Assembly: GCA_050013255.1 (NCBI GenBank) | Contig: JBEKFP010000001.1 | Coordinates: 65,417-97,416 of the forward strand | Length of the DNA: 32,000 bases | Direction of reading: 5' to 3' | Source of the DNA: Candidatus Bathyarchaeia archaeon | GTDB lineage: Archaea; Thermoproteota; Bathyarchaeia; 40CM-2-53-6 | Shown: in pieces, positions 1,738-30,436 of the stretch | Layout of the letters: each line of letters opens with the position of its first letter | Numbering within the stretch: the first letter of the stretch is position 1 | The notes under the pieces: generated by a model | Database searches by the model: none | Told to the model about the DNA's origin: nothing | Seen by the model: the letters and a program-made list of their open reading frames with translations, nothing else | Translations under genes and position numbers: made by a program

Positions 1738-2802
1738 CTACGTTACAGCTCCTTCAGGAACGGGCACATAATCGCAGATGCTTGAAGGCTTTTCAAGGAT
1801 ACGGTTTATTGTGACTTCGCCGACGATGCGGCAATATTTGCCGATTTGGCTAAGGTTCCAGATTATGATTCTTATGCTCGCCGCTGCAGCGACATCTCTC
1901 ACGTTCGCGAGAACCTTCTGTGTCAACTTTCTCTCTTCGGCCTCCAGTGTTTCCACCATTTCAACAGCTTCATTGGACATCGAAATATCGCCCGTCAGGA
2001 GTGCTTTGATGGTGTGATCTGAAGTCTTCATTATTTGGTTGCTGAATTTCGCTATGTCGTTGAGTATAGCTTCGGTCGGTATTGCTCGATCTTTCAGCAC
2101 TAGCACTTCGTTGGCGATATTTTCTGCTGAGTCAGCCATCTCTTCGAGGGTCTTGGCGACCACCCTGTTGCCTGGTATGTGAACCGGCGACTCGATGCCT
2201 ATCTTTGTTCCCACACTTCTGTCCCGTATCGCGAGTAGTAGTTGCCTAACGATGAGCCAATAAATGCGATCGGACTCCTCCTCCATGTGTGTTACCTCGG
2301 CCGCAAGTTCAGGCCTTCTTTCGACAAGTGCCTTGATCGACACGTCGATCATTGAGTTAATTATGATATGCAAACGCCGCATGAGGCCGTAGATCGGAAA
2401 CCGGGTAGGGTCAACGAAGCTCTGCAGCGTGACTTGCTTCAAGGTCTGCTCAACAATGCTGAGGCCTGTCAGCCGCTGAGTTGTGGCCCGAATCTCCTCA
2501 AGGTGAACTTTCTTCAACTCATCTTTAGCCACGATTTGTATCGTATCATGGCCGAGAATATAATTCGCCGTTATGACTCTGGTCAGTATGTTCCGTGAAT
2601 TGCAGAGGTCTGCATTGACAATACAGTCCTTAATCTCCTCTCTTTTGTGCTCTGTTCCCGGGATGAGTTTCAGTGTTCCGTCGTCTTCGCGTTTGATTGA
2701 GACAATGTCGCCCGCTTTCAGTTTGACGTCTTCAACCCATTCCCGCGGAAGTGAAACGGTTAAGGTGGAATATCCAACTCTCTGAACTTTGCGAGCTTCC
2801 AA
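1738..2802 (-). CDS. AbrB/SpoVT-domain plus PhoU-domain regulator (archaeal PhoU-like), paralog 1
   Basis: 354 aa with a TTG start. The N-terminus RKVQRVGYSTLTVSLPREWVEDVKLKAGDIV is a swapped-hairpin AbrB motif. It is followed by two helical PhoU-like repeats (EESDRIYWLIVRQLL, and others). Confidence 0.85.
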   Translation of the reverse strand: MEARKVQRVGYSTLTVSLPREWVEDVKLKAGDIVSIKREDDGTLKLIPGTEHKREEIKDCIVNADLCNSRNILTRVITANYILGHDTIQIVAKDELKKVHLEEIRATTQRLTGLSIVEQTLKQVTLQSFVDPTRFPIYGLMRRLHIIINSMIDVSIKALVERRPELAAEVTHMEEESDRIYWLIVRQLLLAIRDRSVGTKIGIESPVHIPGNRVVAKTLEEMADSAENIANEVLVLKDRAIPTEAILNDIAKFSNQIMKTSDHTIKALLTGDISMSNEAVEMVETLEAEERKLTQKVLANVRDVAAAASIRIIIWNLSQIGKYCRIVGEVTINRILEKPSSICDYVPVPEGAVT

Positions 2803-4738: not shown

Positions 4739-5371
4739 CTATTGAGCTGCCCACGTTGGGACACAGTGGAACGGCGATTTGGCTTTGAATTCTGTTGTCG
4801 GGTTGTTACGAACGAATTCTCTACCCTTCGTCAGTGCTAGGTGATTCAATGGCATTAGGGTTTCTTTCTTGCCAGCAAGAAAGTGCTTCAGAGATTCCTT
4901 AATGCGATCGTCAGTGACCTGTGGGTGGCACAGTTCGATAAACGCGCCGAACATTACTGCATTGGCGAACATTTTCGTATCTTGCGTCTCGGTTGGAGAA
5001 TCATTCTTCAACTCATCTGCTATCTGGGTTGCCGGAATCCCGAATGCTTTGACATCATCACGGTCAATTTCGGTCCCGATCAGCGTCGTGTTGTAGAGGA
5101 CTACTCCGTCCGGGCGAAGGTAATTGAGGAAGTCCAGTGAGGGTTGATTCATTATTATCTCAATGTCGGGTTCTTCTGCTATTGGGTTGTCAACTTCATC
5201 GTCTGATATCACGACGTAGCACTTTGCCTTGCCACCCCGCGTCTCGGGGCCGTACGATGGGGTGTACGCAACATGTTTGCCTTCTAGCATGGCAGTGTAG
5301 GCTATGTAATCACTGAGCAGCAGGACGCCCTGGCCACCGTGCCCAGCTATCAGTACCTTAGTTTTTGTCAT
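4739..5371 (-). CDS. 2-oxoacid:ferredoxin oxidoreductase, gamma subunit
   Basis: 210 aa. The N-terminus IAGHGGQGVLLLSDYIA...YGPETRGG is typical of the gamma subunit. It overlaps the beta gene by 4 nt. Confidence 0.9.
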   Translation of the reverse strand: MTKTKVLIAGHGGQGVLLLSDYIAYTAMLEGKHVAYTPSYGPETRGGKAKCYVVISDDEVDNPIAEEPDIEIIMNQPSLDFLNYLRPDGVVLYNTTLIGTEIDRDDVKAFGIPATQIADELKNDSPTETQDTKMFANAVMFGAFIELCHPQVTDDRIKESLKHFLAGKKETLMPLNHLALTKGREFVRNNPTTEFKAKSPFHCVPTWAAQ

Positions 5372-6168
5372 TGCTTCTCAACTCCGAAGGTATCTTTGTA
5401 GACACCTAGCGGGAACTTCTTCGCCATGTGCTCGTACACGAAGCGTTTGGCGTCTAGGATGGGCATCTTCCAGTTAATCGAGCAGGTGCTTAGCAGTTCG
5501 ACGAAGGCGAAACCGCCCAGGGCTTGGACTTTGAACGCGTTCTCCACCGATTTCTTCGCGTCAAGCAAATTCTTGATCGTATACACCTTGCCCCTCTGGC
5601 TTGAGAGCTCTTGAACTGCCAAGCTTGCACGTTTCACGTAGGCTGCACCGTCTATTCCTGAGAGGAGTTTTGAAACATCGAGCTCAGTCCCTGTCATTGC
5701 TGCATTTCTTCCGAATGGCGTGGTAGTAGTTACCTGACCTTCGAGTGTGGTTGGGGCCATTTGGCCGCCGGTCATACCGTAGATTGCGTTGTTCACGAGG
5801 AAGACTGTGATCGGGGTGTTTCTCTTCGCTGCGTACACCAATTCCAAGAGCCCGATGGAGGCGGCGTCTCCGTCGCCCTGAACTGTGAAGACGGTAAGTT
5901 CAGGCTTAACCCTCTTCAGGCCTGCGGCAACCGCAGGAGCTCTTCCGTGAGGCGCCACGATGTGGTCGCAGTTGAAGTAATTGTAAGCCAGGACACTGCA
6001 GCCTACTGAGTCGATCATAACCGTTTTTTCACGAATTCGTAGTTCATCCATTGCGGCGGCGATCAACCGGGTGAGCGTGCCATGTTCGCATCCTGCGCAG
6101 TAGTGCGTTGGGTTATCGGTCAAAGATTCCAGTTTGCCTATCTTTACTTTGAGAGAAAGTTGACTCAT
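5368..6168 (-). CDS. 2-oxoacid:ferredoxin oxidoreductase, beta (TPP-binding) subunit
   Basis: 266 aa. It carries the CAGCEHG cysteine motif and the GDGD...N TPP/Mg motif (VQGDGDAASIGLLE...NNAIYGMTGGQ). Confidence 0.9.
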   Translation of the reverse strand: MSQLSLKVKIGKLESLTDNPTHYCAGCEHGTLTRLIAAAMDELRIREKTVMIDSVGCSVLAYNYFNCDHIVAPHGRAPAVAAGLKRVKPELTVFTVQGDGDAASIGLLELVYAAKRNTPITVFLVNNAIYGMTGGQMAPTTLEGQVTTTTPFGRNAAMTGTELDVSKLLSGIDGAAYVKRASLAVQELSSQRGKVYTIKNLLDAKKSVENAFKVQALGGFAFVELLSTCSINWKMPILDAKRFVYEHMAKKFPLGVYKDTFGVEKQ

Positions 6169-7241
6169 GCCGCTAACACCTCCAGATGTCGCAGCTTACT
6201 TTCTATTTCAGCTTCGGTCGGGACGATTCCGCCCCATTTGCCTAGAAAGTCAACAGTTACACCATCGCCGACTGCGAGCTTCACATCCTCATACATTTGA
6301 CCGGTGTTCAACTCAACATCCAAGAACTGCTTTCCTTCCGAAGCGAGTTTTCTCAGGGCGAGTTTCGGAAAAGGCCAAAGCGTAATTGGCCTGAAGAGGC
6401 CGACCTTGACACCCTTCGAACGAAGTTTGTTAATGGCGCCCTTTGCGATTCGTGACACAATACCGAAGGCAACGATCACTTTCTCAGCATCTTCAGTTAA
6501 GTAAGACTCAAACCTAACCTCGTTCGCTTCTGCCAGCTTGTATTTCTCGAAAATTCTGCCCACGTGTTTGTAGTGCTTCTGGTAGTCGAGTTCTAGCGAG
6601 TTGAGTATGTGTGGCCCGCGGCCCTTAGCCCCTGTAGCAGCCCAGGAGGACACATCGTACTTTGGTGGCGTGAACTCCGGGAACTCCACGTCCTCTTTCA
6701 ATTGGCCTGTGAAAGCATCTCCCAAAATCAGTGTTGGGTTTCTGTACTTGAACGCCAAGTCGAATCCAATTCTTGGGAAGAGGGCCATTTCTTGAACTGA
6801 GGCCGGAGCTAAAACGAATAACCGGTAATTGCCGTGCCCGCCTCCTTTGGTCGCCTGGAAGTAATCGCTCTGTTCCGGGCCAAGGTTGCCTAGGCCTGGC
6901 CCCGCTCGGCAAATATCAACCACTAGGAATGGAAGTTCCATCCCAGCCGCATATGACAACCCCTCCTGTTTCAGGCTGAAACCTGGGCTAGAGGTCGCAG
7001 TCATCGCGCGTACCCCGCCGGATGCAGCTCCAAGGACCATGTTGATGGCCTCTAGTTCGCTCGCGGCTTGCAAGAAGTATTTGTATTCTGGGTATTTTTT
7101 GTTGCCAAACTCCTTTGCTAGGGTTTCTGGGATTTCGCTTGATGGGGTTATTGGGTATGCGAAGTACGCATTGAGGCCTGCTTCGAGCGCGCCGTATGCC
7201 ACAGCCTCGTTACCCTTTAGGTAAACTCGTTGTTTCGACAT
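6165..7241 (-). CDS. 2-oxoacid:ferredoxin oxidoreductase, alpha subunit
   Basis: 358 aa. The N-terminus LKGNEAVAYGALEAGLNAYFAYPITPSSEI is typical of the alpha subunit. Confidence 0.9.
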   Translation of the reverse strand: MSKQRVYLKGNEAVAYGALEAGLNAYFAYPITPSSEIPETLAKEFGNKKYPEYKYFLQAASELEAINMVLGAASGGVRAMTATSSPGFSLKQEGLSYAAGMELPFLVVDICRAGPGLGNLGPEQSDYFQATKGGGHGNYRLFVLAPASVQEMALFPRIGFDLAFKYRNPTLILGDAFTGQLKEDVEFPEFTPPKYDVSSWAATGAKGRGPHILNSLELDYQKHYKHVGRIFEKYKLAEANEVRFESYLTEDAEKVIVAFGIVSRIAKGAINKLRSKGVKVGLFRPITLWPFPKLALRKLASEGKQFLDVELNTGQMYEDVKLAVGDGVTVDFLGKWGGIVPTEAEIESKLRHLEVLAA

Positions 7242-10402: not shown

Positions 10403-11086
10403 TTGACTAGGCCTCCAGAAGTCATAACCTCTGCGGAGGGCGAGGTATTCGACGTGGAACTTGAGATTGACATCCTAAGAGAGAACCAACGCCTCGCCGA
10501 CGAGAACAAGAAAAAGCTAGATGCAAACAAGATCCACGCAATTGATGTCATGGGTTCGGTGGGGTCAGGAAAAACCTCCCTCATCAAGGCTATCGTTTCT
10601 AGACTGAAGAACAAACACCGGATCGCAGTAATTGAGGGAGACGTAACTACAACGATTGATTCTGAGCTCATCGCCTCTGAGGGAATCCCGACCGTTCAGG
10701 TCAACACAGGCAAAGAATGCCACCTGGATGCGAACCTCATCAGGAAGGCCTTGGACCGAATGCCATTGGACCGGCTTGACCTGATCTTCATTGAGAATGT
10801 AGGAAACCTGATTTGCCCAGCCGAGTTTCCGCTTGGGTCCGATAGACGATTGGTCGTGATCAGCGTGACGGAGGGCCCCTACATGGTTCTCAAGCACCCG
10901 ATGATGTTTCTCGGCGCCAAGGTTGTGGCCATAAACAAAGTAGACTTGGCCAAGGCGATGGATGTTGAACCCGAGAAGCTAAGCGCCGATGTTGCCAAAC
11001 TGAACCCAAAGGCGGTTACTGTTCCCACAAGTTGCAAGAACGGAAAAGGCATCGAAGAAGTCATCAAAGCACTCGGGTTGAGTTAG
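10403..11086 (+). CDS. hypB: Hydrogenase nickel-incorporation GTPase HypB
   Basis: 227 aa with a TTG start. The P-loop is MGSVGSGKTSL. It also has the ENVGNLICPA motif and the NKVDL (NKxD) motif. Confidence 0.9.
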   Translation: MTRPPEVITSAEGEVFDVELEIDILRENQRLADENKKKLDANKIHAIDVMGSVGSGKTSLIKAIVSRLKNKHRIAVIEGDVTTTIDSELIASEGIPTVQVNTGKECHLDANLIRKALDRMPLDRLDLIFIENVGNLICPAEFPLGSDRRLVVISVTEGPYMVLKHPMMFLGAKVVAINKVDLAKAMDVEPEKLSADVAKLNPKAVTVPTSCKNGKGIEEVIKALGLS

Positions 11087-11097
11087 TGGTTTAGAGT

Positions 11098-11514
11098 ATG
11101 CATGAGTTCTCTTTTGCCACATCAATTGTAGAGTCGCTTCTCGACCTCGCAAATAAGCAGGGGGCGAGTAAGGTGTTGGGGGTTCACATGAGAATTGGAA
11201 AACTCAGAGCTCTATCGACCGAGCAGTTGAGCTTCTCGTATGGCATACTTGCCAAGGGCACCATTCTCGAAGGCTCCAAGTTGACGGTAGAGGAATCGGC
11301 CGGAAGCCTAAGGTGTACTCACTGCGAGTATCACGGAGAATTCGACCCCGAAGGTGATTTGTCCTTTCACTTTGGAATACCGCCCCTCATCTGCCCGCAA
11401 TGCGGTAGCGGTCTGAGTATCGAAGGCGGTGATGAATGCACGATAACAAGCGTTCGGATGCTTCTACCGACAACCATGAAAGAAAGTGAGCCCGCAGCCG
11501 AGACCTCGAATTGA
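11098..11514 (+). CDS. hypA: Hydrogenase nickel-insertion protein HypA
   Basis: 138 aa. It has the N-terminal MHE nickel-site motif and the zinc site CTHC...CPQC. Confidence 0.9.
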   Translation: MHEFSFATSIVESLLDLANKQGASKVLGVHMRIGKLRALSTEQLSFSYGILAKGTILEGSKLTVEESAGSLRCTHCEYHGEFDPEGDLSFHFGIPPLICPQCGSGLSIEGGDECTITSVRMLLPTTMKESEPAAETSN

Positions 11515-11563
11515 GGAAGCTGGCAGCCACGCGACGCCTATTCTCTATATAGAAAAGCGGCGG

Positions 11564-11572
11564 AATATATAA
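11564..11572 (+). promoter_or_regulatory. Candidate TATA box for the AbrB-PhoU paralog 2 gene
   Basis: The sequence GGAATATATAACTGG lies about 55 nt upstream of the ATG at 11623. A second TATA-like element, TCTATATAGA, is at 11544-11553. Confidence 0.25.
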
Positions 11573-11622
11573 CTGGCCTCTCCAGCTGACAGTAGTTTCG
11601 ATTTCCGCACCACATCAGAGTA

Positions 11623-12738
11623 ATGACCAGAGTGAAAGCAGAATTGGAGATAAGAAAGGTCCAGAGAGTCGGGCATTCGACCTTAACGGTCTCCCTTCCC
11701 AGAGATTGGGTTAGGCAAGTTGGACTAAAGCAGGGGGGCGTAGTCACCCTTCGCCTTTCCGAATTCGGCGAACTCATTGTTACCCCCGGCAGCGAGATGG
11801 AATCTGAAGAGATGACGGTCTGCAAAATAAACGCTGATGCCTGCAGGGACCGAGACTTTCTTTCAAGAATGATTACGGGCAACTACATCCTGGGCCGCGA
11901 CACTATCATAGTGTCATCAACCACAGAACTAAAGGCGGAACAATTGGCTGAAATCCGGGACTCAACACGAAGGTTGAGCGGTCTAGGTATCGTTGAGCAA
12001 ACACCAAAGGAGACCGTGATTCAATGCTTTCTTGACCCTTCCAAATTCACGGTCACCGGCCTACTCACACGCCTACACAAAGTAGCTGTCTCAATGCTCG
12101 AGACGGCCATGCAGGCCTTGAAGGACAGAAAGTTTTCCCTAGCCCTAGAAGTGTTAGAACTTGAGAACGAAGCCGACCGCCTATACTGGCTGATCCTGCG
12201 GCAAATATTCAGGGCGATTTCGAAGATACCGCTCTCGCGACATGTCGGAATAGAATCAGCAACCCACGCTGTAGGCTATCGGGCTGTGTCAAAGTACCTC
12301 GAAGAGATGGCTGACTGTAGTGAATCGATCGCCAACCTAGTTCTCTCCATGGCCGATGAGAACTGCCTTGAATACTCCTCAGTAATAGACGAAGTGTGCA
12401 AGTTTGGAGCTGAAACCATCGCTATATCGAAAAGTGGAATGGATTCACTTAGCATGCTGGATGTCGAAATGGCAAACGCAATCGTGGCCCGCTCAAAACA
12501 CGCTGAAGAAATGGAAAAAGAGGTCATAGAACTCGTTGTGTCATCGGTTCAAGAACCCAAGCTAGCATTGGCACTAAGGGGCATCGTATGGAACCTCGCG
12601 GAAGTATCCCGCTCCGCTCAAATGGTCGCTGAGATCGCAATCAACCGCTACCTTGAAAGCAATAGCGACATGTGTCAATTCTGGAAAGAGCGGAAGAGCG
12701 GGGGAGACGTTCAATACCTAAGGAAGGTCGTAGCCTAG
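11623..12738 (+). CDS. AbrB/SpoVT-domain plus PhoU-domain regulator, paralog 2
   Basis: 371 aa. RKVQRVGHSTLTVSLPRDWV is nearly identical to the N-terminus of paralog 1. The helical repeats are colinear with paralog 1 (ENEADRLYWLILRQIF versus EEESDRIYWLIVRQLL). Confidence 0.85.
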   Translation: MTRVKAELEIRKVQRVGHSTLTVSLPRDWVRQVGLKQGGVVTLRLSEFGELIVTPGSEMESEEMTVCKINADACRDRDFLSRMITGNYILGRDTIIVSSTTELKAEQLAEIRDSTRRLSGLGIVEQTPKETVIQCFLDPSKFTVTGLLTRLHKVAVSMLETAMQALKDRKFSLALEVLELENEADRLYWLILRQIFRAISKIPLSRHVGIESATHAVGYRAVSKYLEEMADCSESIANLVLSMADENCLEYSSVIDEVCKFGAETIAISKSGMDSLSMLDVEMANAIVARSKHAEEMEKEVIELVVSSVQEPKLALALRGIVWNLAEVSRSAQMVAEIAINRYLESNSDMCQFWKERKSGGDVQYLRKVVA

Positions 12739-14192
12739 ACTCATTCTTTGACCCCAAATCCCTAGCCATTGTTGGTGCATCGTCCACACCCCTCCGCATA
12801 GGCTACGTCATGGCCCAAAACATGGTGGCCAATCATGCGAGAGGAATTTTCAAAGGCGAAGTTTACCTAGTAAACCCGAACCACGACGAAATCCTCGGCC
12901 AGAGGAGCTACCCTTCCATCTCGGCGATCAAGAGGCATGTTGAGACAATCGTGGTGGCCATCCCCGCTGCAGGCGTCCCAGATGTGATCGAAGAAGCTGG
13001 AAAAGCCGGGGCTAACGCAGCGATAGTAATATCGTCGGGATTCGCGGAGGTCGGCAACAGAGCATTAGAAGATAAACTCGTAGACGTAGCGAGAAGATAC
13101 GGAATCAGGGTAGTAGGGCCGAACTGCCTGGGAATCTATGACGCCTATACCGGCATGGACACGCTTTTCCTACCGGAAACAAAATTCCTCTCGGACGGGC
13201 GCGAAGTCGTCGCGACCCCACGGCCGAGACCTGGTTCAGTCTCGTTCCTAACCCAGAGCGGGGCATTCGGTGCAGCGGCGTTAGACTACATGGCAGGCCA
13301 TGGGATGGGCATACGTGGATTCGTTAGTTATGGGAATAGGTGCGACGTGACAGAGGATGAGTTCCTTGAATACTTCACGAACGACGGCCAAACCAAAGTA
13401 ATCCTGATGTACGTTGAAGGCCTCGCCAAAGGAAGAGAATTCCTTGAAAGGGCAAAGGAGGCCACAAGAAAGAAACCGGTCGTTGCGCTCAAGTCAGGTA
13501 GGACAGAGGCGGGAACTAGAGCCGCCGCATCACATACCGCAGCCCTAGCCGGGATCGAGCAGATTTACGAGGGAGCGTTCAAGCAAGCAGGAATCATAAG
13601 GGTGCGAAACGTTGAAGAGCTATTCGACTTCGGGCGTGCGTTAGCCCTTCAACCCCCAGCATATACGCAAAGCGTAGCCGTTCTGACGAACGCTGGCGGA
13701 CCAGGAATTATTGCGGCTGACGCACTGGAAGAATCTGGGTTGAAGGTGCACAAGTTTTCTGAACGAATCATGTCGAAATTCGATGACTTCAAGGCGAAGA
13801 AGCTGCTTCTGCCAGTTCTTTCAGGGTTCAATCCCATGGACCTTTCGGCAGAGGCCACGAGCGAGATGTTTGCGCTCGCCATATCAACGATCTTGGACGA
13901 TCCCGAAATAGGAGGGCTTGTCTTGATTACGTTGCACCACGCTCCGACGATACTTGATGATGCTGTGGATAAGATCGCGAAAACTATACCAAAATACGGA
14001 AAACCTGTTACAGTATGCGACATGGGCGGAACGGAAATGGCGGAGACAATGAGAATGGCGTTTGAGAAGAGGGGCATACCATCCTACTCGGTGCCCGAAA
14101 GGGCCGCTCGTGCACTCTGGGCATTGTCATACTACGGAACTTATTTGCAAGACCATGGTGTTGTAAGGGCCGCAGGGGAAATCGCAGCTTAG
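12672..14192 (+). CDS. acdA: ADP-forming acyl/acetyl-CoA synthetase, alpha subunit (CoA-binding / succinyl-CoA-ligase-like)
   Basis: 506 aa. The CoA-binding N-terminus is PKSLAIVGAS, and the phosphohistidine loop is AASHTAALAG. The GTG at 12672 is the only in-frame ATG/GTG/TTG upstream of the conserved IVGAS motif. No beta (ATP-grasp) subunit lies adjacent. Confidence 0.85.
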   Translation: MSILERAEERGRRSIPKEGRSLDSFFDPKSLAIVGASSTPLRIGYVMAQNMVANHARGIFKGEVYLVNPNHDEILGQRSYPSISAIKRHVETIVVAIPAAGVPDVIEEAGKAGANAAIVISSGFAEVGNRALEDKLVDVARRYGIRVVGPNCLGIYDAYTGMDTLFLPETKFLSDGREVVATPRPRPGSVSFLTQSGAFGAAALDYMAGHGMGIRGFVSYGNRCDVTEDEFLEYFTNDGQTKVILMYVEGLAKGREFLERAKEATRKKPVVALKSGRTEAGTRAAASHTAALAGIEQIYEGAFKQAGIIRVRNVEELFDFGRALALQPPAYTQSVAVLTNAGGPGIIAADALEESGLKVHKFSERIMSKFDDFKAKKLLLPVLSGFNPMDLSAEATSEMFALAISTILDDPEIGGLVLITLHHAPTILDDAVDKIAKTIPKYGKPVTVCDMGGTEMAETMRMAFEKRGIPSYSVPERAARALWALSYYGTYLQDHGVVRAAGEIAA

Positions 14193-14205
14193 GATAAGAC
14201 TCCTT

Positions 14206-15369
14206 TTGTTAGTCACAAGTTTGCCCAAGTATGTTGAGGAGCTCAAAAGCCACCCCTTAGATCCACTCGTTTCGAGCCTGGTTGACTCCTCAGCCGACAG
14301 CAACCTCGCCAAGATAGTAGGCTTGCTGAGGGAACGCGGTGTTTACGAAGTCTTCGTTCCGGAAGGCACTCGGTGCGGAATGATATGCGCGAGGGACGTT
14401 TTGAAGACAACTAACATTGAAACTACGAAAACCAGTGCCGTTATGTCATACGTCCCTTCGCTTGAGAGAGATGCGTTAGTCAGCGAAGCGGCTAGGCTGA
14501 TGACGGACTACAGAGTAAGAGCCGTGCCCATTTCTGACGGTCGCAAAATCATTGGTCAAGTAAACTGCGGGCGCATCCTCCTGGAATTGAAAGGTAAGCT
14601 CGGTGGTGACCTACGAATCGCTTCTCTTGCGACAAAGGATCCTATAACGGTCGACGACACGGCGCCGGTTGGGAAAGCGAGAGAACTCATGGTTCGGAAG
14701 CGAATCGACCATCTACCAGTGACTACAAGAGGCAGAATAGCTGGAACCATAACGTCCTTTCAAATCCTCACAAGCATGGCCCCACCAGAACGGGTTGGAA
14801 GCAAATCGACGAAACCCGAAATCCGGCGCAACCTCGAGTATCTAGTTGGCGATGCGATGGAGCGAGACCCTTTGACCTGTTCCCCTGAAACTAGCGCCGA
14901 ACAAGCTTTGGATATGATGCTAAAGAGCCAAAGAACTTGCATTCTCGTCACACAATGGGAGGAACTCCAAGGAATAGCCACCCAAAGAGATTTCATGGCC
15001 CTCCTTGCTGAGGCAGAGCCTGAACCTGAAGTCCCGGTCTTTATGGTTGGACTTCCCGAGGATCCGTTCGAGGCTGAGGCAACGAAAGCGAAGTTCAAAC
15101 GAACCATTACTCAGCTCCACCGGAGTTTTCCTGACATTCTCGAAGCGAGGTCTGTCATAAAATCAAAATTCACGAAGCCCGGTAGGGAGCGAGGTCGGTA
15201 TGAAGTGACGGTTCATATCAAGACGCCTAGGAACGCTTACAGTTACTCAGAAGGCGGTTATGAACTCCCAGTCATATACGACCTGATAACGGACAGACTT
15301 AAACGCCTACTAACGCAGAAACAAAAACGCCGAAGAACGCGCGAGAGGGAGCGACAAGAAGCAGTCTAG
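14206..15369 (+). CDS. Four-CBS-domain protein with a C-terminal HPF/RaiA (S30AE)-like domain
   Basis: 387 aa with a TTG start. I read four CBS repeats at roughly aa 20-70, 78-130, 137-190 and 210-265. The C-terminal 110 aa follow a beta-alpha-beta-beta-beta-alpha pattern. The segment VTVHIKTPRNAYSYSEGGYELPVIYDLITDRLKRLLTQKQKRRR parallels E. coli RaiA [40 protein letters not shown]. Confidence 0.8.
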   Translation: MLVTSLPKYVEELKSHPLDPLVSSLVDSSADSNLAKIVGLLRERGVYEVFVPEGTRCGMICARDVLKTTNIETTKTSAVMSYVPSLERDALVSEAARLMTDYRVRAVPISDGRKIIGQVNCGRILLELKGKLGGDLRIASLATKDPITVDDTAPVGKARELMVRKRIDHLPVTTRGRIAGTITSFQILTSMAPPERVGSKSTKPEIRRNLEYLVGDAMERDPLTCSPETSAEQALDMMLKSQRTCILVTQWEELQGIATQRDFMALLAEAEPEPEVPVFMVGLPEDPFEAEATKAKFKRTITQLHRSFPDILEARSVIKSKFTKPGRERGRYEVTVHIKTPRNAYSYSEGGYELPVIYDLITDRLKRLLTQKQKRRRTRERERQEAV

Positions 15370-15400
15370 TTCGCTTTGAACTATCAGGAGTAATTACTAC

Positions 15401-17425
15401 TTGCTGCTGCCTACCAGAATGAAGAGGGTTGAGATCATTGTCCCGCAAAGAAAGTTCGATGACGTCATGCTCTACCTCCGCGAACAGAACGCGATTGAAC
15501 TCCTTGACGTTAAGGAAATGATCAAGGGGTACGGTGGCGGCGTAACCTCAACAACAGTCTCGGATAGACTCTACCGACTTACGACACTTGAATCAAAAAT
15601 CAATTCAATCATAGCAGCACTCCAACTCACATCGCTGCAATCGAAACAAGTTCAAGTGGACCGAAGAATCTCTGATGAGCAAATCGCCGAAATCGAGAAG
15701 CGAGTGGCCGAAATCGAACAGCAAGTAACCACACTCACAAACGAATCCCAAGCCATCGAATCATTGATTTCCTACGCAGAGCGACAGCTGCACGCCAGCA
15801 TAGAGGAAATCACGAAAATCGAGAACGTAAATTCACCCGAAGGAAGACATAGGCTCGAAGAAATCGTCGCCGGTATCTTCCAGACGCTTAAACCTTCAGA
15901 GATTAAGATCACTGGGCAGCTTGAAGAAATAGTCCAAGCTAAGGCATTGGAAGACGCCGTTGTCAAGGACATTTCAGATAATGTGGCCAAGATCCTAGCC
16001 AAAAAGCGTGACGAAAAAGCGATTGCTGACGCCATCACGCAGACGCTAGGCCTCAAACTGAAGGCCGCGGGTCGAGGCAAACGGTTAGCATATGAGGACA
16101 CTAGTAGAATTGAAGAGTCGAAGCAGAGACTCAGGGAACTCAAAGAAAAGCTTACTGAAATAAGCCGAACCGATGGCGATTTCCTTCTAATCAACAGGGA
16201 GATTATCGGCGCAGAGAGAGCCTTCGAGCAGGCCAAGGCGTACACAGGCAAAACAGAATCGACTTCTATGATTGAGGGGTGGATGCCCGCCTCAAAAATC
16301 AACACAATCAGATCCGCGCTTCAAGAGATGTGCGGCGGGGAAGTGATAATGAAGGATTGGGTGAGTAAAGATGCGCCGACTAATGTCTCGAAGCCGAAAC
16401 TCCCAGTGCTTCAGATTTTCGAAAAGCTGACCCTTGGCTTCGGCGTCCCAAACAGTGATGAGGTTGACCCCACGGTATTGTGGCTCGTCACCTACCCACT
16501 CTTTTTCGGATTCATGTTTGGCGATGTGGGTAACGGGTTTGTAGTGATGGTTGTTTCAACAATATTCTGGATCAAGAAGAGGCAGGGGTTGGTTATTTCG
16601 GACAATGCTTACGGCGGTTTAGGAGGAGTATTCAGCATGATAATTCAAGGAGCACCATTACTCGTGCTCAGTGGCGCCTCAGCGCTCGTTGTAGGATTCC
16701 TCTACGGGACGGTTTTCGGCAGCGTCGCATGGTTCCGAATGGTCACGGGCCTCCCGGGACCTCTATGGTTCGAACCTTTCGAGAATATTCGGCTGATGCT
16801 GAGGCTGTCCATTACTATCGGGGTAATCCATATCATGTCAGGCCTATGCTTGGACATATTCAACAAGGCCTACGCTAGGGAATATCACGAACTAGTTTCT
16901 GGCCCGCTCGTTTGGCTCTGGTTCTACGGCGCTTTTGGGATTACGTTGCTTCAATACGGGCTGCGATTTCCAAATTACCTCTTCGACTCCAAGAACACGG
17001 TCGACATCTTCCTTAGGATAGGACTCCCGCTCATCGCCATGATGGTGCTGAAGCTTTGGGCAGAAGGGTCCATGGGTCTTATGCACGGCTTCGAAAATCT
17101 CTTGTCGTCCCTGTCCCACACGATTTCCTATGTTCGAATTTTAGCCATGAAGTTGATCGACGACGTCTTTCTCCGGCTCTTCCTCGGAGTTCTCGTCTTC
17201 TTCATGGCTTGGGGCAATGTTGCTGGGACAGTTCTAGGGTACGTGCTTTTCTCAGCCTTAACGATCGTACTAATTCTGATTTTGGAAACAGCTTTTGTGT
17301 TCATGCAGTCGCTTCGACTTCACTGGGTCGAGTGGTTCATGAAATTCTATGGTGGCAACGGGACAGCCTTCAAACCATACGGCGCCGAGCGGGCTCACAC
17401 GAAGGTTCGTACAGGCGCACAGTAG
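15401..17425 (+). CDS. atpI: A/V-type ATP synthase subunit I (a-subunit, proton channel)
   Basis: 674 aa with a TTG start. The family-typical N-terminus is MLLPTRMKRVEI. A long coiled-coil cytoplasmic domain precedes a C-terminal membrane domain with the essential-Arg motif HTISYVRILAMKL. Confidence 0.9.
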   Translation: MLLPTRMKRVEIIVPQRKFDDVMLYLREQNAIELLDVKEMIKGYGGGVTSTTVSDRLYRLTTLESKINSIIAALQLTSLQSKQVQVDRRISDEQIAEIEKRVAEIEQQVTTLTNESQAIESLISYAERQLHASIEEITKIENVNSPEGRHRLEEIVAGIFQTLKPSEIKITGQLEEIVQAKALEDAVVKDISDNVAKILAKKRDEKAIADAITQTLGLKLKAAGRGKRLAYEDTSRIEESKQRLRELKEKLTEISRTDGDFLLINREIIGAERAFEQAKAYTGKTESTSMIEGWMPASKINTIRSALQEMCGGEVIMKDWVSKDAPTNVSKPKLPVLQIFEKLTLGFGVPNSDEVDPTVLWLVTYPLFFGFMFGDVGNGFVVMVVSTIFWIKKRQGLVISDNAYGGLGGVFSMIIQGAPLLVLSGASALVVGFLYGTVFGSVAWFRMVTGLPGPLWFEPFENIRLMLRLSITIGVIHIMSGLCLDIFNKAYAREYHELVSGPLVWLWFYGAFGITLLQYGLRFPNYLFDSKNTVDIFLRIGLPLIAMMVLKLWAEGSMGLMHGFENLLSSLSHTISYVRILAMKLIDDVFLRLFLGVLVFFMAWGNVAGTVLGYVLFSALTIVLILILETAFVFMQSLRLHWVEWFMKFYGGNGTAFKPYGAERAHTKVRTGAQ

Positions 17426-17483
17426 GCTATTCTGAAATTGAACTAGCTTCGAAAGTCTGATTCCATGTCGTCGGTCAAACTTT

Positions 17484-18878
17484 TTGAAGTCTTGGCGCAC
17501 GGGTTTATATGAGCCTTGTCGCTTCCGTATCAGACAATTCAGGCGAGGCGCACAATCAACGAGCCATACGGCTTCAATCCAAGTACAAGCGGTCAACGAC
17601 ATTGTCGCGCAGCTACAGGATTATGGATTAACCCGCAATGAGGCTCGCGTCCTAGTCTTCCTCGCCAAGACCGGGCCCTCAAAAGCCAGTGAAGTGGCTC
17701 GCGCAGTGCAAATCAACCGCACGGAAACTTACAGGACAATACGGAACCTTCAACGCCGTGGACTGGTGGAAGCCACGCTCGAAAGGCCGGTGCGCTTCCA
17801 ATCCGTTCCATTTGACAGGTGCCTGCGCATCCTAATCGACGAGAGAAAGGCGAGGTTGAGGATTCTCGAGCAACGCGGCGAAGATTTGCGCCGCCAATTC
17901 GATGATGTGCGCGTCGAACCTGTCAGTCAAGAAGTTGAACGATTTCAAGTAGTGGGAGGAAGGCTTCGAATTGAGCAACGATTGCACGGTATGTACACCC
18001 AAGCCCAGAAATCGATCATGACTGTTCTATCACCATCGGAAGTGATACGGGCCGATACGTCAGACCTGTTTGACTTGCTTGGAAACGCAGCGAAGAATGG
18101 CCTTCGCGTCCGTGTGATTACAGCGATCAATCAAAGCAATTTACAAATTGTAGAGAAGTTCCGCGAGAGGATCGAGATAAGGCATCTCGACCTAAAGGCG
18201 AAACCGATCCCTAGGGTTTCTATAATCGATGATAGTGAAGCCCTCTTCGAAATTACAACTGTCGACGAGAGCCCGAGAACCGAGGAAGAGGTTGCACTAT
18301 GGATCAACAGCCGCGCCTTCGTGAGAAACCTCCAAGCCTACTTTGAGGAGATGTGGAATTCAGGCACGCCAGCTGAAGGCCGTTTAGAGGCAGTGCGAAA
18401 AGGAATACCCCCTGACGACCTTAGAATATTCAAAGGAAGACCAGAAGTAAGCGGCAAACTCAACGAGATGATCACATCAGCCAACCAGAGCGTTGAGATA
18501 TGGACGACGATGAGGGGAATCCAGGCTCTCGCGGACTTCCACTTCGGCCAGCTCAAGGAAGCAAAGGCTCGAGGAGCAAAGATACGCATCATTGCACCCA
18601 TCACAAGCGAGAATACAGAAGGTGCACGCAAGCTCGTGCCCGTCTCCGAATTACGTTATTCTGAAGCTCTTGGCCCGGCGGGAATTGCGATTGCGGACCA
18701 AAGAGAGTTAATGCTGTTCGAGAGACTGCCCGACGACAATAACGCCGAGGTGGGCGCTGACGTGGGTTTCTGGACCAATAGTACCCGCTTCATAGAAACT
18801 ATGAGCAGAGCTTACGATGCGTTGTGGAAAGGCGTATTTGCGATTTACACGCCAAAGCGCCGCGTGCTGCGCAGCTAG
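17484..18878 (+). CDS. TrmB-family transcriptional regulator with tandem C-terminal domains
   Basis: 464 aa, with a TTG as the only in-frame start. The wHTH reads YGLTRNEARVLVFLAKTGPSKASEVARAVQINRTETYRTIRNLQRRGLV. It is followed by two similar modules of about 150 aa. Confidence 0.75.
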   Translation: MKSWRTGLYEPCRFRIRQFRRGAQSTSHTASIQVQAVNDIVAQLQDYGLTRNEARVLVFLAKTGPSKASEVARAVQINRTETYRTIRNLQRRGLVEATLERPVRFQSVPFDRCLRILIDERKARLRILEQRGEDLRRQFDDVRVEPVSQEVERFQVVGGRLRIEQRLHGMYTQAQKSIMTVLSPSEVIRADTSDLFDLLGNAAKNGLRVRVITAINQSNLQIVEKFRERIEIRHLDLKAKPIPRVSIIDDSEALFEITTVDESPRTEEEVALWINSRAFVRNLQAYFEEMWNSGTPAEGRLEAVRKGIPPDDLRIFKGRPEVSGKLNEMITSANQSVEIWTTMRGIQALADFHFGQLKEAKARGAKIRIIAPITSENTEGARKLVPVSELRYSEALGPAGIAIADQRELMLFERLPDDNNAEVGADVGFWTNSTRFIETMSRAYDALWKGVFAIYTPKRRVLRS

Positions 18879-20569: not shown

Positions 20570-21682
20570 TCAGCCGATTTCTTTCAGTTTGGCTGGCAAA
20601 TATTTGTCTACGATGTAGGCCAACCCGTATCGGCTGAAAGCTTCTTGTTCTGCTTTTTTCTTAACTTTCAGGAATGTTGCAATTTCATCTTTCCATAGCT
20701 TTCCGTTGTACCTAGGGTCCTTCTCAAGTTCATAGAGCCTCTTTATGTCGAGGTCTGTTAGAGGGTCGCTTGGAAGTTTGTAATCTACGATATCAGAGGC
20801 CCACACCCCCGCCCATTTGGCGTCTGGCGTGTTTAGTTCCCGAAGGTGGGCGGCGTTTGCTGAGCCGGATATTATTACATTGGCGATGTGCATTCCCCAG
20901 GGGTCTGCGTCGCAGAAAATGTACACTGGGAGCCCCAATTCTTTGTTCAATCTTCGAAGGAGCGCTCGTGTTGCGCGCGGTGCCTGGCCTGCAGTGTGAA
21001 TCAATAAAGCCTTGTACTTCTCGTGAACCCTCTCCTCAATAAAACGTGTGAAGAGCCCGCCTTTCTCGATAGCAATAATCTTGTCAGCTTTACACTCAGC
21101 AAATTCTGCGTTCGTAAGCGCTGGGCCGATCATCATCCCGTCTGGGTGCGACGATAGGTTGAGCTCCTTACCTTCATATCCGCGAACGGTATACTGGATG
21201 GTTAGATCGCCGAAGATTGCGCTACGCTCCTCAGGAAATACGTTAAAGTCCTCTCTAGAATACCCAAGAACTGTTTCAAGGTCAGTGATTATATCGTCAC
21301 TTTCCGCTTGATCTGCGAAGCTCATTTCGTAAGCTTGCGCTGAGTAGAATACGTCTCTCAAGGTTGAGGTCTTCCCTTCGCGTGCCAGTTCGTCGACGAA
21401 GGACCCGGTCCAGACGAGCTGCGTTAGTGGCCTGATATGCCTTATGTTTCGGGCGCTACGCCTCACGTAATGTTCGCCGAGCACGTATTGCCGGGTTTTT
21501 TCATCGTAGCGTATGTTCTTTATCGACCGGCTGGGCATTCGGACCGAGGGCCATTGCTTCTGGGAGAGTTGCGAGTAGATTTGGTTACCCAAAGTTTTGA
21601 GGCTGTCTAATACCAAGCCTCTTCGTTGCTCGACTCGACTAGACCTGCTCTCCTTGGTCGTCTTCACTTTCCTCTTTTTCAT
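20570..21682 (-). CDS. top6A: DNA topoisomerase VI subunit A (Spo11 family)
   Basis: 370 aa. It has a Toprim region (IAIEKGGLF...IFCDADPWG) and a 5Y-CAP region with RDVFYS. A start at the ATG at 21682 overlaps top6B by 44 nt; an alternative TTG is at 21616. Confidence 0.9.
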   Translation of the reverse strand: MKKRKVKTTKESRSSRVEQRRGLVLDSLKTLGNQIYSQLSQKQWPSVRMPSRSIKNIRYDEKTRQYVLGEHYVRRSARNIRHIRPLTQLVWTGSFVDELAREGKTSTLRDVFYSAQAYEMSFADQAESDDIITDLETVLGYSREDFNVFPEERSAIFGDLTIQYTVRGYEGKELNLSSHPDGMMIGPALTNAEFAECKADKIIAIEKGGLFTRFIEERVHEKYKALLIHTAGQAPRATRALLRRLNKELGLPVYIFCDADPWGMHIANVIISGSANAAHLRELNTPDAKWAGVWASDIVDYKLPSDPLTDLDIKRLYELEKDPRYNGKLWKDEIATFLKVKKKAEQEAFSRYGLAYIVDKYLPAKLKEIG

Positions 21683-23225
21683 GCCTCAAAACACTCCTGA
21701 GTAAGGGCGAAACATCTGGGGGCTTACCCTTCTTAGCAAGCTTGGCCGAGAAAGAAGCGATCTTTGGAAGGTATTTCTGGAACACGTCAAGCCTGTGCTT
21801 GTCATGTGCCAAGTGAATCTTTTTCGAAAGGAATAACGAGAGTCTACGTGCGACCTCACGAACTGCGTTAAGCACTTCACGTTCTACGTCGGGGCGATCG
21901 GCGATGAATTCCTTGCCCACAGTTTTGTACGGGACCTTCGTGGAACAAATGTGAACGAAAACCGCTATCGGCATCTCAGGCGAGGCTTTGTAGTGCCGCC
22001 AGTCAACCTCCGTGTTTACAACTTTCCATGATACGTCACTCGCCTCGTCGAAGAGCAACGGAATCTTATTGGCGAATCTGAAAAGCTTGATTCCTCCACC
22101 GGCCTCAATTTGCCCGCCGTAGGCGACGCCCACTTCAACAATGAATGGAAAACCGGAGTAGGCCGATGGTTTTCTTTGATAAACGGCTACGAATTCAGGA
22201 GCGAGTTCTTTCTTGATTCCGGCTTCAAGCAATTCTTCCCCAAGCGGTGACAGGCAACTTGCATCTGGGGCTAGGAACTTGTAGTTTTTCATTGCGTTTA
22301 CGATTTTGACGATCTCTTCAGGTGTCAGTTTCTTCGGGTTTTTCTTGACGGGGAGGTCTACTTGTGTCAGGAATGAGGTGGCGATTGTGCGGCCGACTCT
22401 GTGAAAGTGAGTTTTCATGAAACCGACGAGCGTATGTTCCTTAGTTAATTCGATAAGGCGCGTGATCGTTTCGACGTCGACGCCGTACGGGTGTGGTAGG
22501 GTTTCTTGCGGCGGTTTCGGCATTTGGACTGTGCCACGATCGAACCTGTAGAGCCTGCCCCTCGGGTCTACGTAGGTTATAGTTGCGTATGGAGCGACAA
22601 TCGCGGTTGCCATTAGATAGTCGAGAATCTTGGACATCGCCCGGGTGTAGTCTGCTTCGGTGGAGAATTCGACAACGGCCCCGTGCCAATGATTATCGTT
22701 TGGGTGCGTCTTGTGCTTGATAATGACTGGTTTGTTCTTTTGGATGTCAATCATCAGATCGTATTGGTGTATCTTTGTTCGACCAGTGCTGGACATGATG
22801 GTTGCTGTGCCGTGGGTCGTGACCTGGCCGTAAAGTATGGCCATCTTGCCGCCCAACCCGAAGGTTCCTCGGGTCTGTCGAAGCTTGTATTTGGATCCGT
22901 AGAGAACTTGGCCGAAGGCGGAGGGTATGATATCGTGAGGTATCCCAATGCCGTTGTCTTCAATGTGGACCCTGTAGACACCAGGCCCATCTGTCGGACC
23001 CGATTCGTGCGACACTCGCAGATAGATGTCAGGAGGAATTTCACGTGTTTCGCAGGCGTCGAGTGAATTTTCGACTAACTCACGGATAGTAGAGTAGATA
23101 GCCCTCGTTGGGTTCGTGAATCCTGCGATGTCCCGGTTACGGTAGAAGAAATCTGCCGCCGATATTTCCTGGAATACTTCTTGGAGGGCCATCAGGGTTC
23201 GCCTATCTTGTTGAAGGTGGGGCAT
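21639..23225 (-). CDS. top6B: DNA topoisomerase VI subunit B (GHKL ATPase)
   Basis: 528 aa. The Bergerat-fold motifs are ELVENSLDA, DNGIGIP and GTFGLGGK. Confidence 0.95.
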   Translation of the reverse strand: MPHLQQDRRTLMALQEVFQEISAADFFYRNRDIAGFTNPTRAIYSTIRELVENSLDACETREIPPDIYLRVSHESGPTDGPGVYRVHIEDNGIGIPHDIIPSAFGQVLYGSKYKLRQTRGTFGLGGKMAILYGQVTTHGTATIMSSTGRTKIHQYDLMIDIQKNKPVIIKHKTHPNDNHWHGAVVEFSTEADYTRAMSKILDYLMATAIVAPYATITYVDPRGRLYRFDRGTVQMPKPPQETLPHPYGVDVETITRLIELTKEHTLVGFMKTHFHRVGRTIATSFLTQVDLPVKKNPKKLTPEEIVKIVNAMKNYKFLAPDASCLSPLGEELLEAGIKKELAPEFVAVYQRKPSAYSGFPFIVEVGVAYGGQIEAGGGIKLFRFANKIPLLFDEASDVSWKVVNTEVDWRHYKASPEMPIAVFVHICSTKVPYKTVGKEFIADRPDVEREVLNAVREVARRLSLFLSKKIHLAHDKHRLDVFQKYLPKIASFSAKLAKKGKPPDVSPLLRSVLRHEKEESEDDQGEQV

Positions 23226-28918: not shown

Positions 28919-30436
28919 TTACTTGCGTTTGGATATGTTCTTCTTCCATGTCAATTGCATCGACTTTGGCCTGTTGGCCTTGGCTTCGTCTATTCTTGTC
29001 ACACTCGTTGCATGTGGGCTTGTTGCAGGTTGGTCGGAATTTGAGTAAGCTTCCTCGCTAATCTTGGCGAAGCCGTCGATCATTGCGTCAAGTTCCTCTT
29101 TGGCTACGGTTTCGGTTGGCTCAGCCATCATGGCCTCCTCTATGATTAAGGGGAAGTAGACCGTTGGCGGGTGTACTCCAAAATCCAGCAACCTCTTTGC
29201 TACCTGAAGTGCTGTGACGCCCGTTTCCTTTGCGAGTGCTGACGCGGACAGGACGAATTCATGTTTCCTAGGAATCCCTTCTCCGTACGGAAGCGAGAAA
29301 CCTTTGATTTTTCGAAGTTTTTCTGCCATGTAATTGGCGTTGAGAACAGCAATCTCCGACGCTGTTTCTAGGCCTTCCTTTCCATGAAGAAGAATGTAGG
29401 TGTAAGCACGAAGGACTACGGCGGCGCTGCCGTGAAACGCTCTGACCTTCCCGATACTTTTCGGCCTGTTGTAGTCAAGGTAGTACCTCTCTCCGTCAAA
29501 TTCGACAGTCGGTACGGGCAAGTAGTCCTCGAGACGGCTCGTGACCCCAACTGGGCCGGCGCCCGGCCCACCTCCCCCGTGCGGTGTTGCGAAGGTTTTG
29601 TGCAGGTTGATGTGAACAATATCGAAGCCCATGTCGCCTGGTTTAGCCTTCCCCATGATCGCGTTGAGGTTTGCGCCGTCGTAGTAGAGCAGCCCGCCAG
29701 AATCATGAACTATGCCTGCGATTTCGAGGATCTTCCGTTCGAAAATCCCAAGTGTGTTTGGGTTTGTTACCATTAGGCCGGCCGTATTCGGTCCGACGGC
29801 GCTCTTTAGCGCCTCCGTATCCACGCAGCCCTCTGAATCTGAAGGAACCTCAACCACTTTGTAACCAGCCATTGCTGCGCTGGCAGGGTTCGTCCCATGG
29901 GCTGAATCAGGAACGATTATCTCATCACGCTTTGTGTCAGCCTTGTCGCGATGGTACGCTCGCATCAGCATGACACCAGTGTATTCCCCGTGTGCTCCGG
30001 CCGCGGGTTGCAACGTTATCTTCTGCATCCCAACAATGTTCGCTAGAAAGTTCGCAGCCTCATAGAGGATTTGAAGAATGCCCTGTACGGTCCTCAGGTC
30101 TTGGTATGGGTGTAACTCTTGGATTTTATGTGAAGCAGCTACGAGATCACAAAGTTTCGGGTTGTATTTCATTGTGCAGCTTCCGAGCGGATAAAGGCCG
30201 AGGTCGACGCCGAAGTTTTCTTGCGAGAGTCGGGTGAAGTGACGAACTACTTCAATCTCCGAGACCTCAGGCAGCGATAATGGTGCAACGCGCCGAAGCT
30301 TCAGTGGGACACTTTCTAGGGCTGCATCGCGCTCCTTAGTGGAGGAGAGCGTATGGAAGCCGACTTTTCCTGGTCGGGACAATTCGATGATGGGGGGTTC
30401 GTCCCATTTCGCTTGACCATAGCCCATTAGTCTCAA
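28919..30436 (-). CDS. gcvPB: Glycine dehydrogenase (decarboxylating) subunit 2 (P-protein beta)
   Basis: 505 aa. The PLP-lysine motif is HINLHKTFATPHGGGGPG. The start is a TTG at 30436, in a TTGA overlap with the gcvPA stop, or an ATG at 30427. Confidence 0.95.
   Translation of the reverse strand: MRLMGYGQAKWDEPPIIELSRPGKVGFHTLSSTKERDAALESVPLKLRRVAPLSLPEVSEIEVVRHFTRLSQENFGVDLGLYPLGSCTMKYNPKLCDLVAASHKIQELHPYQDLRTVQGILQILYEAANFLANIVGMQKITLQPAAGAHGEYTGVMLMRAYHRDKADTKRDEIIVPDSAHGTNPASAAMAGYKVVEVPSDSEGCVDTEALKSAVGPNTAGLMVTNPNTLGIFERKILEIAGIVHDSGGLLYYDGANLNAIMGKAKPGDMGFDIVHINLHKTFATPHGGGGPGAGPVGVTSRLEDYLPVPTVEFDGERYYLDYNRPKSIGKVRAFHGSAAVVLRAYTYILLHGKEGLETASEIAVLNANYMAEKLRKIKGFSLPYGEGIPRKHEFVLSASALAKETGVTALQVAKRLLDFGVHPPTVYFPLIIEEAMMAEPTETVAKEELDAMIDGFAKISEEAYSNSDQPATSPHATSVTRIDEAKANRPKSMQLTWKKNISKRK

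Follow-up and report, generated by a model that had tools for sequence, protein, structure and literature searches.

The 32,000-nucleotide stretch of DNA analyzed here (the window; positions 65,417 to 97,416 of contig JBEKFP010000001.1, from a Candidatus Bathyarchaeia archaeon) carries on its forward strand a gene whose product joins four CBS domains to a domain of the HPF/RaiA fold. The architecture, the fold, and the homology to characterized proteins are established for this protein, and the same function as its homologues is predicted by analogy. We regard the gene as very probably the Bathyarchaeia orthologue of the archaeal ribosome hibernation factor HibA (also named AHA) and refer to it as hibA. 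A sequence-only reading of the window had proposed that a CBS tetrad fused to an HPF/RaiA-like domain forms a candidate hibernation factor, which is borne out by the fold, by profile evidence, and by full-length homology to Pyrococcus abyssi HibA. The gene and its parts are as follows (aa, amino acids; pI, isoelectric point; pLDDT, predicted local distance difference test).

14206..15369, + strand: hibA/AHA-family gene; 387 aa, TTG start, TAG stop at 15367-15369, uninterrupted open reading frame (ORF)
14206..15000, + strand: CBS tetrad, two Bateman modules (aa 1-265); Pfam CBS, AlphaFold, and Foldseek
14776..14835, + strand: extended basic loop of CBS3 (aa ~191-210, APPERVGSKSTKPEIRRNL...); a low-pLDDT loop between CBS3 and CBS4
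15001..15036, + strand: acidic linker (aa 266-277, LLAEAEPEPEVP); pI 4.1, no K or R, pLDDT <50 in the full-length model
15037..15285, + strand: HPF/RaiA-fold domain; AlphaFold pLDDT 86.5, Foldseek, profile and hhalign matches
15286..15366, + strand: rest of helix alpha2 and basic tail (aa 361-387, ...KQKRRRTRERERQEAV); 11 K+R in 27 residues, pI 11.8

The two modules of the fusion protein

The C-terminal domain was modelled alone by AlphaFold with 48 diverse relatives and reached a pLDDT of 86.5. The model contains beta1 (278-281), alpha1 (287-307), beta2 (313-321), beta3 (331-339), beta4 (344-351), and alpha2 (354-386), and the secondary structure assigned beforehand from the sequence agrees with it within 2-3 residues; the seven sequence segments quoted for that assignment all lie at the places given for them. 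Helix alpha2 and the tail were modelled as a single long helix (354-386), and a longer terminal helix, with a tail reaching the mRNA exit channel, has been described for AHA and HibA (PMC12934967; PMC13324472). A Foldseek search of the model, which had been suggested as a check together with AlphaFold, gave a clear structural match: the top 34 PDB matches are all HPF, RaiA, pY, plastid pY, or PSRP1, with a probability of 1.00 and template modelling scores of 0.51-0.69.

Sequence profiles give the same answer. A profile of the 48 C-terminal relatives matched HPF chains in the PDB with E values from 5.8e-6 to 7.5e-4, including those of Staphylococcus aureus (5.8e-6), Thermus thermophilus (1.5e-4), Escherichia coli (5e-4), and Listeria. 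Short matches of this profile to the Q-beta coat/A1 protein (28-32 residues) were set aside as chance beta-hairpin matches. Using hhalign, the profile aligned with E. coli HPF at E = 1.3e-5 (probability 81%) and with RaiA at E = 9.4e-4, and 14 of the 48 relatives match Pfam PF02482 on their own (E <= 0.01). A phmmer search of the domain against 1.84 billion cluster representatives (E <= 1e-3) returned 128 proteins. Two of these, P0189 and P0243, are tandem-repeat false positives (7 x DUF5801 and 16 x chitin-binding CBM_14, respectively) that passed E < 1e-3 by summing weak repeat matches. Among the 126 true relatives that remain, 58 are at least 330 aa long with the domain in C-terminal position (~260-380), and another 52 have fewer than 200 aa. 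The C-terminal domain thus has the HPF/RaiA fold and profile-level homology to HPF, and by homology it would be the module for the 30S decoding site and the mRNA channel.

One finer claim was not upheld. The motif I-x-TP-x6-S... had been said to match E. coli RaiA/HPF nearly position for position; as written, it matches E. coli RaiA but neither the window protein nor E. coli HPF, and it fits the window protein (residues 338-372) only with one-residue slack at three places. Pairwise BLASTP against E. coli RaiA gave no meaningful alignment (E = 0.077, wrong register). The similarity to RaiA/HPF is therefore real at the level of profile and fold, but not position for position. Identity of the C-terminal domain is ~16-19% to E. 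coli RaiA/HPF by hhalign and 8-21% across the HPF-family Foldseek matches. With the bacterial HPF, RaiA (YfiA), and plastid pY proteins (PF02482, TIGR00741), the window protein has C-terminal fold, topology, and profile homology in common, and the binding site on the 30S subunit is presumably the same. It differs in a conserved GLP[ED]DPFEAE segment after beta1 and in a longer beta2-beta3 loop. Bacterial HPF is either a standalone protein of ~95-115 aa or a long HPF with a C-terminal dimerisation domain, whereas here the domain ends a CBS-tetrad fusion.

The N-terminal half was read as four CBS repeats in two Bateman modules within the first 265 aa, and this is confirmed. Pfam CBS (PF00571) matched with E = 2.7e-30, but reported three stretches only. 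In the AlphaFold model there are four beta-alpha-beta-beta-alpha units (residues ~17-65, 75-128, 135-190, and 211-265), and pLDDT is mostly >85 across residues 11-190 and 211-270 of the full-length model. The Foldseek PDB matches of the N-terminal model are themselves CBS tetrads, comprising SSO3205 with AMP, the Methanosarcina acetivorans Sri proteins on the ribosome, MJ1225, AMPK-gamma, and Dri. By homology, the tetrad would serve as the module for large-subunit and adenine-nucleotide binding. The loop that extends from CBS3 has a pI of 10.9, and its R196 and G198 are invariant among close relatives. It aligns with residues ~190-207 of P. abyssi HibA, the position of the 'PTC loop' or 'loop 3' of HibA/AHA (PMC13324472).

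Assignment to the HibA/AHA family

Three groups reported the CBS-HPF architecture in archaea in 2025-2026 (PMC13324472, PMC12934967, PMC13454478). HibA comprises a CBS module (1-269) and an HPF/RaiA-like domain (270-392) and occurs in 47% of archaeal genomes (Madru et al., Nat Commun 2026, PMC13324472). AHA is the same family, found in 2,723 of 6,968 species (Souza et al., bioRxiv 2026, PMC12934967), and a third survey gives 42% of species (Nissley et al., PMC13454478). HibA was seen on hibernating 70S ribosomes by electron cryo-microscopy (cryo-EM), is an inhibitor of translation in vitro, and maintains 70S pools in vivo (PMC13324472), and the Haloferax volcanii orthologue AHA behaves like HibA (PMC12934967). 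Ribosome binding, translation inhibition, and stationary-phase ribosome preservation have been reported for the P. abyssi, Thermococcus barophilus, and H. volcanii proteins only (PMC13324472, PMC12934967). Deletion mutants are slow to recover from stationary phase (PMC13324472, PMC12934967); ~60% of 70S ribosomes are lost on deletion of hibA in T. barophilus (PMC13324472), and ribosomal proteins are depleted in stationary phase in the H. volcanii AHA knockout (PMC12934967). The view that archaea lack HPF or rarely have it, from which the fusion had first drawn its interest, is therefore out of date, given that HibA/AHA is reported in 42-47% of archaeal genomes. Since the family was published in 2025-2026, the window protein is of an already-known kind: the CBS-HPF hypothesis is supported, yet the family is no longer new.

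The strongest link to this family runs through the whole protein. Single-sequence phmmer against the PDB aligned residues 61-377 of the window protein with residues 50-376 of 9sr9_H (E = 2e-9); this chain H of 9SR9 bears the name 'Dehydrogenase' in the deposited entry, but it is P. abyssi HibA. A full-length family profile of 54 members, gathered via the window protein's own C-terminal domain, retrieved 9sr9_H first (E = 2.1e-46, 63-366 aligned to 63-374), with the alignment running through both domains. Second was 9l96_a, a 406-aa CBS protein aligned end to end (E = 9.5e-44), and SriA ranked below both (2.9e-38). Four characteristic features of HibA/AHA are present in the window protein: the CBS tetrad, the HPF/RaiA domain, full-length collinear homology to a characterized member, and the extended CBS3 loop.

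Comparison with individual members supports the same placement. HibA (P. abyssi Q9UYR4, PDB 9SR9-9SRF and 9T7H; T. barophilus F0LKU5) has the same architecture with nearly the same boundaries (1-269/270-392 versus 1-265/278-387 in the window protein), an extended CBS3 loop at about the same place, and two domains that both align collinearly. HibA comes from Thermococcales, whereas the window protein comes from Bathyarchaeia (Thermoproteota) and is known here from sequence and model; identity between the two is low, as the single-sequence E of only 2e-9 reflects, and the C-terminal domains have diverged too far for a link through that domain by itself. AHA (H. volcanii HVO_2384), compared here by its published description, combines an AMPK-gamma-related CBS tetrad with an HPF domain that has a longer terminal helix, and the window model likewise has a long alpha2 and AMPK-gamma-like matches; AMP occupancy and knockout phenotypes are known for the haloarchaeal protein only. 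The SriA-D and ARC-A,P proteins of Methanosarcina and Methanolobus have a homologous CBS tetrad, and SriA is the best single-sequence PDB match (E = 5e-18). They consist of the tetrad only (~270-340 aa), have no HPF domain, act as separate partners, and are usually encoded in sri gene clusters, whereas the window protein has the HPF-like domain. Dri of Thermoproteota has two CBS tetrads in 655 aa, in contrast to the single tetrad in 387 aa found here.

Pfam detected no CBS domain in the 20 neighbouring ORFs of the window that were scanned. One distant lineage encodes a separate CBS-only protein of 276 aa directly upstream of the hibA homologue (L092 2235-3065; L093 841-1671), which fits the clustering of CBS-module genes mentioned in the HibA paper (PMC13324472).

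Several results weigh against the assignment. Taken alone, the window protein has no Pfam PF02482 match, scores 17.7 bits against TIGR00741 (yfiA), below the curated cutoff of 40.9, and with its C-terminal 118 aa retrieves neither HibA nor HPF from the PDB by phmmer. In the full-length AlphaFold model, built on a shallow alignment of 39 close homologues, the pLDDT of the C-terminal domain is <50. The C-terminal profile did not retrieve 9sr9_H from the PDB at E <= 1, so it is the collinear alignment over the full length, dominated by the CBS half, that connects the window protein to P. abyssi HibA. The main text of the HibA and AHA papers mentions neither Bathyarchaeia nor gene neighbourhood; the HibA source data list 149 Bathyarchaeia genomes in the survey, without per-genome calls (PMC13324472). 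Because single-sequence searches (Pfam, phmmer against the PDB, and BLASTP) gave nothing significant for the C-terminal domain, profiles and a model were needed to recognize it. Of the profile searches proposed at the outset, the one with PF00571 succeeded and the one with PF02482 failed on the single sequence, whereas the relatives' profile found the HPF chains.

If the window protein acts as its homologues do, its C-terminal domain would occupy the decoding site within the small subunit's tRNA/mRNA channel, with its long basic helix and tail extending toward the mRNA exit. The CBS tetrad would dock on the 50S subunit over the tRNA sites, from where the extended basic CBS3 loop could enter the peptidyl-transferase centre. 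Because one polypeptide would hold both subunits, idle 70S ribosomes would be kept assembled, silent, and protected during starvation or stress. At the sequence level, the window protein has each element of this design: the CBS tetrad, the loop of CBS3, the acidic linker, the core of the HPF domain, and a long basic helix with its tail.

Nucleotide binding at the CBS tetrad

By analogy with its homologues, the window protein probably binds an adenine nucleotide at the CBS3/CBS4 interface. The sequence-only reading went further and suggested that the fusion couples adenylate charge directly to translational shutdown. Nucleotide binding by the homologues agrees with this, but direct coupling goes beyond the published evidence. 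In its full form the idea describes a true adenylate-charge switch, in which the AMP-bound, low-energy form would stay on the ribosome and ATP at the CBS tetrad would release it, so that energy state would be coupled to translation. The CBS module of HibA binds AMP more tightly than ADP or ATP (dissociation constants of 12 uM, 65 uM, and 113 uM, respectively), but saturating AMP or ATP leaves HibA's conformational landscape on the ribosome, taken as a whole, largely unchanged, ATP adding only a weakly populated extra uL5 state, and the authors do not conclude that ATP releases HibA (PMC13324472). AHA on ribosomes carries two AMP at CBS3/CBS4 (PMC12934967), whereas native HibA-ribosome complexes showed no bound nucleotide (PMC13324472). 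For ARC-A/ARC-P, related CBS factors that are not fused, mobilisation by ATP has been reported.

CBS4 of the window protein has kept the motif G256-I-A-T259-x-R-D262, in which G256, I257, T259, and D262 are at least 90% conserved family-wide, and the modelled tetrad resembles AMPK-gamma and AMP-bound SSO3205. The canonical Asp is nevertheless missing from CBS2 and CBS3 (N-C-G-R and T-S-F-Q, read from the sequence), and nucleotide binding by this protein is itself predicted from homologues. Since nucleotides bind HibA but leave its landscape largely unchanged, nucleotide control of attachment or release is plausible but unproven, even for the published homologues. We consider a full charge switch possible, though somewhat unlikely.

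Gene neighbourhood and conservation of hibA

Two genes closely flank hibA on the same strand.

12672..14192, + strand: alpha subunit of an ADP-forming acyl-CoA synthetase type enzyme (acs alpha); Pfam CoA_binding_2, Succ_CoA_lig, and Ligase_CoA_2; ends 13 nt before hibA
15401..17425, + strand: A/V-type ATPase subunit I (atpI); Pfam V_ATPase_I, E = 7e-38; 31 nt after hibA

The ORF of 14206-15369 and its spacings of 13 nt and 31 nt to these neighbours had been read correctly. The local gene order is hypB, hypA, AbrB/PhoU-like, acs alpha, hibA, atpI, and trmB-like, and an AGGAG lies ahead of atpI (15386-15390). Neighbourhoods were compared across 87 related loci, all from one Bathyarchaeia clade. 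Of the 77 loci with enough downstream sequence, 76 have atpI as the next gene after hibA, and acs alpha comes immediately before hibA in 44 of 60. This adjacency of hibA and atpI is absent from five distant HibA-family loci, where the neighbours are unrelated. An energy theme had been seen in the context of the gene. As a general property of the family it does not hold: with the 87 loci belonging to one clade and the five distant loci unrelated, the theme is lineage-specific synteny.

The conserved neighbours raise a different explanation, namely that the protein is not ribosome-associated and acts as a CBS-type regulatory subunit of the acyl-CoA synthetase or the A-type ATPase, its likeness to HPF being fold convergence. 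The tight linkage to atpI and the frequent one to acs alpha would suit such a subunit, but neighbourhoods differ in the five distant family members. The failure of the single sequence at the curated HPF thresholds would also be expected from convergence, but the homology to HPF reaches the sequence-profile level, beyond mere fold likeness. Moreover, homology is collinear over the full length with a protein seen on ribosomes by cryo-EM, and the basic tail and basic CBS3 loop suit RNA binding. We consider this explanation very improbable and retain the assignment to HibA/AHA.

The short intergenic gaps make co-transcription of acs alpha, hibA, and atpI plausible, and no obvious oligo-T terminator was seen. 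As a tentative proposal, which we think more likely wrong than right, hibA in this Bathyarchaeia clade may have become part of a fixed transcription unit that contains an isolated gene for A-type ATPase subunit I and, in many cases, the gene for the alpha subunit of an ADP-forming acyl-CoA synthetase. A hibernation factor would then be co-expressed with parts of the energy-conserving machinery. Neither the HibA nor the AHA paper takes up such lineage-specific wiring in its main text.

Other features of the string were recorded. Two TATA-like boxes (ctatatag and aatatataa) at 11545-11572, 50-75 nt upstream of the ATG of the PhoU-like gene, are a possible archaeal promoter for the string that runs from this gene through acs and hibA to atpI. 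With the GTG listed as its start (12672), acs shares 67 nt with the PhoU-like gene; the true start may be further downstream. The PhoU-like gene that heads the string (11623-12738, +) has a paralogue in the window (1738-2802, -), and both encode an AbrB/MazE-type N-terminal domain and a PhoU domain. Downstream, atpI lacks the usual c-subunit gene after it and is followed by a TrmB-like regulator; no further ATPase subunit was found in the Pfam scan of 20 neighbouring window ORFs. Two close relatives, a metagenome-assembled genome (MAG) and a metagenome contig (L001 7169-9211; L010 5686-7410), have atpI broken into two ORFs close to its 5' end, which may come from a frameshift or stop common to both, or from faulty assembly. 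The gene surroundings consist of ordinary housekeeping genes for topoisomerase VI A/B, glycine cleavage P1/P2, 2-oxoacid:ferredoxin oxidoreductase subunits, methionyl-tRNA synthetase, and HypA/HypB (including 20570-23225, 28919-31821, and 5368-7241, all on the - strand).

The hibA ORF is a genuine conserved gene. A search of 5.8 billion proteins (E <= 1e-5) found 383 relatives of its product. Most of the 120 best homologues are 378-390 aa long and share the same start position (MSVxxLPKYVEEL), and because some of those that share it use ATG, the called TTG start is supported. In an alignment of 39 relatives with 62-80% identity, 60 columns are invariant and are distributed across both halves of the protein; these columns and the homologues of matching length indicate that the gene is real and under selection. 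The TTG start and the 13-nt gap without a clear Shine-Dalgarno sequence might suggest a chance reading frame or a decayed pseudogene, but 387 stop-free codons, the invariant columns, and ~380 homologues that keep length and domain order at identities down to 49% leave that idea a negligible chance, and we treat it as already ruled out by the conservation data. Close homologues are annotated in IMG as 'CBS domain-containing protein/ribosome-associated translation inhibitor RaiA'. The nearest genomes are Bathyarchaeia MAGs from peat and soil (91% identity in the hibA product), and JGI contig Ga0208321_1000081 matches the window at ~100%. hibA diverges faster than its syntenic neighbours, with 49-64% identity compared to 69-82% for acs, atpI, PhoU-like, and TrmB-like (L005-L007 versus window 10403-18878).

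The inference of a CBS-HPF hibernation factor, made from sequence only, proved correct, and the window contributes one further member of the family, from an uncultured peat and sediment lineage (Bathyarchaeia). The architecture joins a nucleotide-binding CBS module to a universal ribosome-silencing domain. What remains of interest is the question of a nucleotide switch and the Bathyarchaeia-specific linkage of hibA and atpI, whose near-invariant adjacency offers a small, testable lead on the co-regulation of hibernation and energy conservation.

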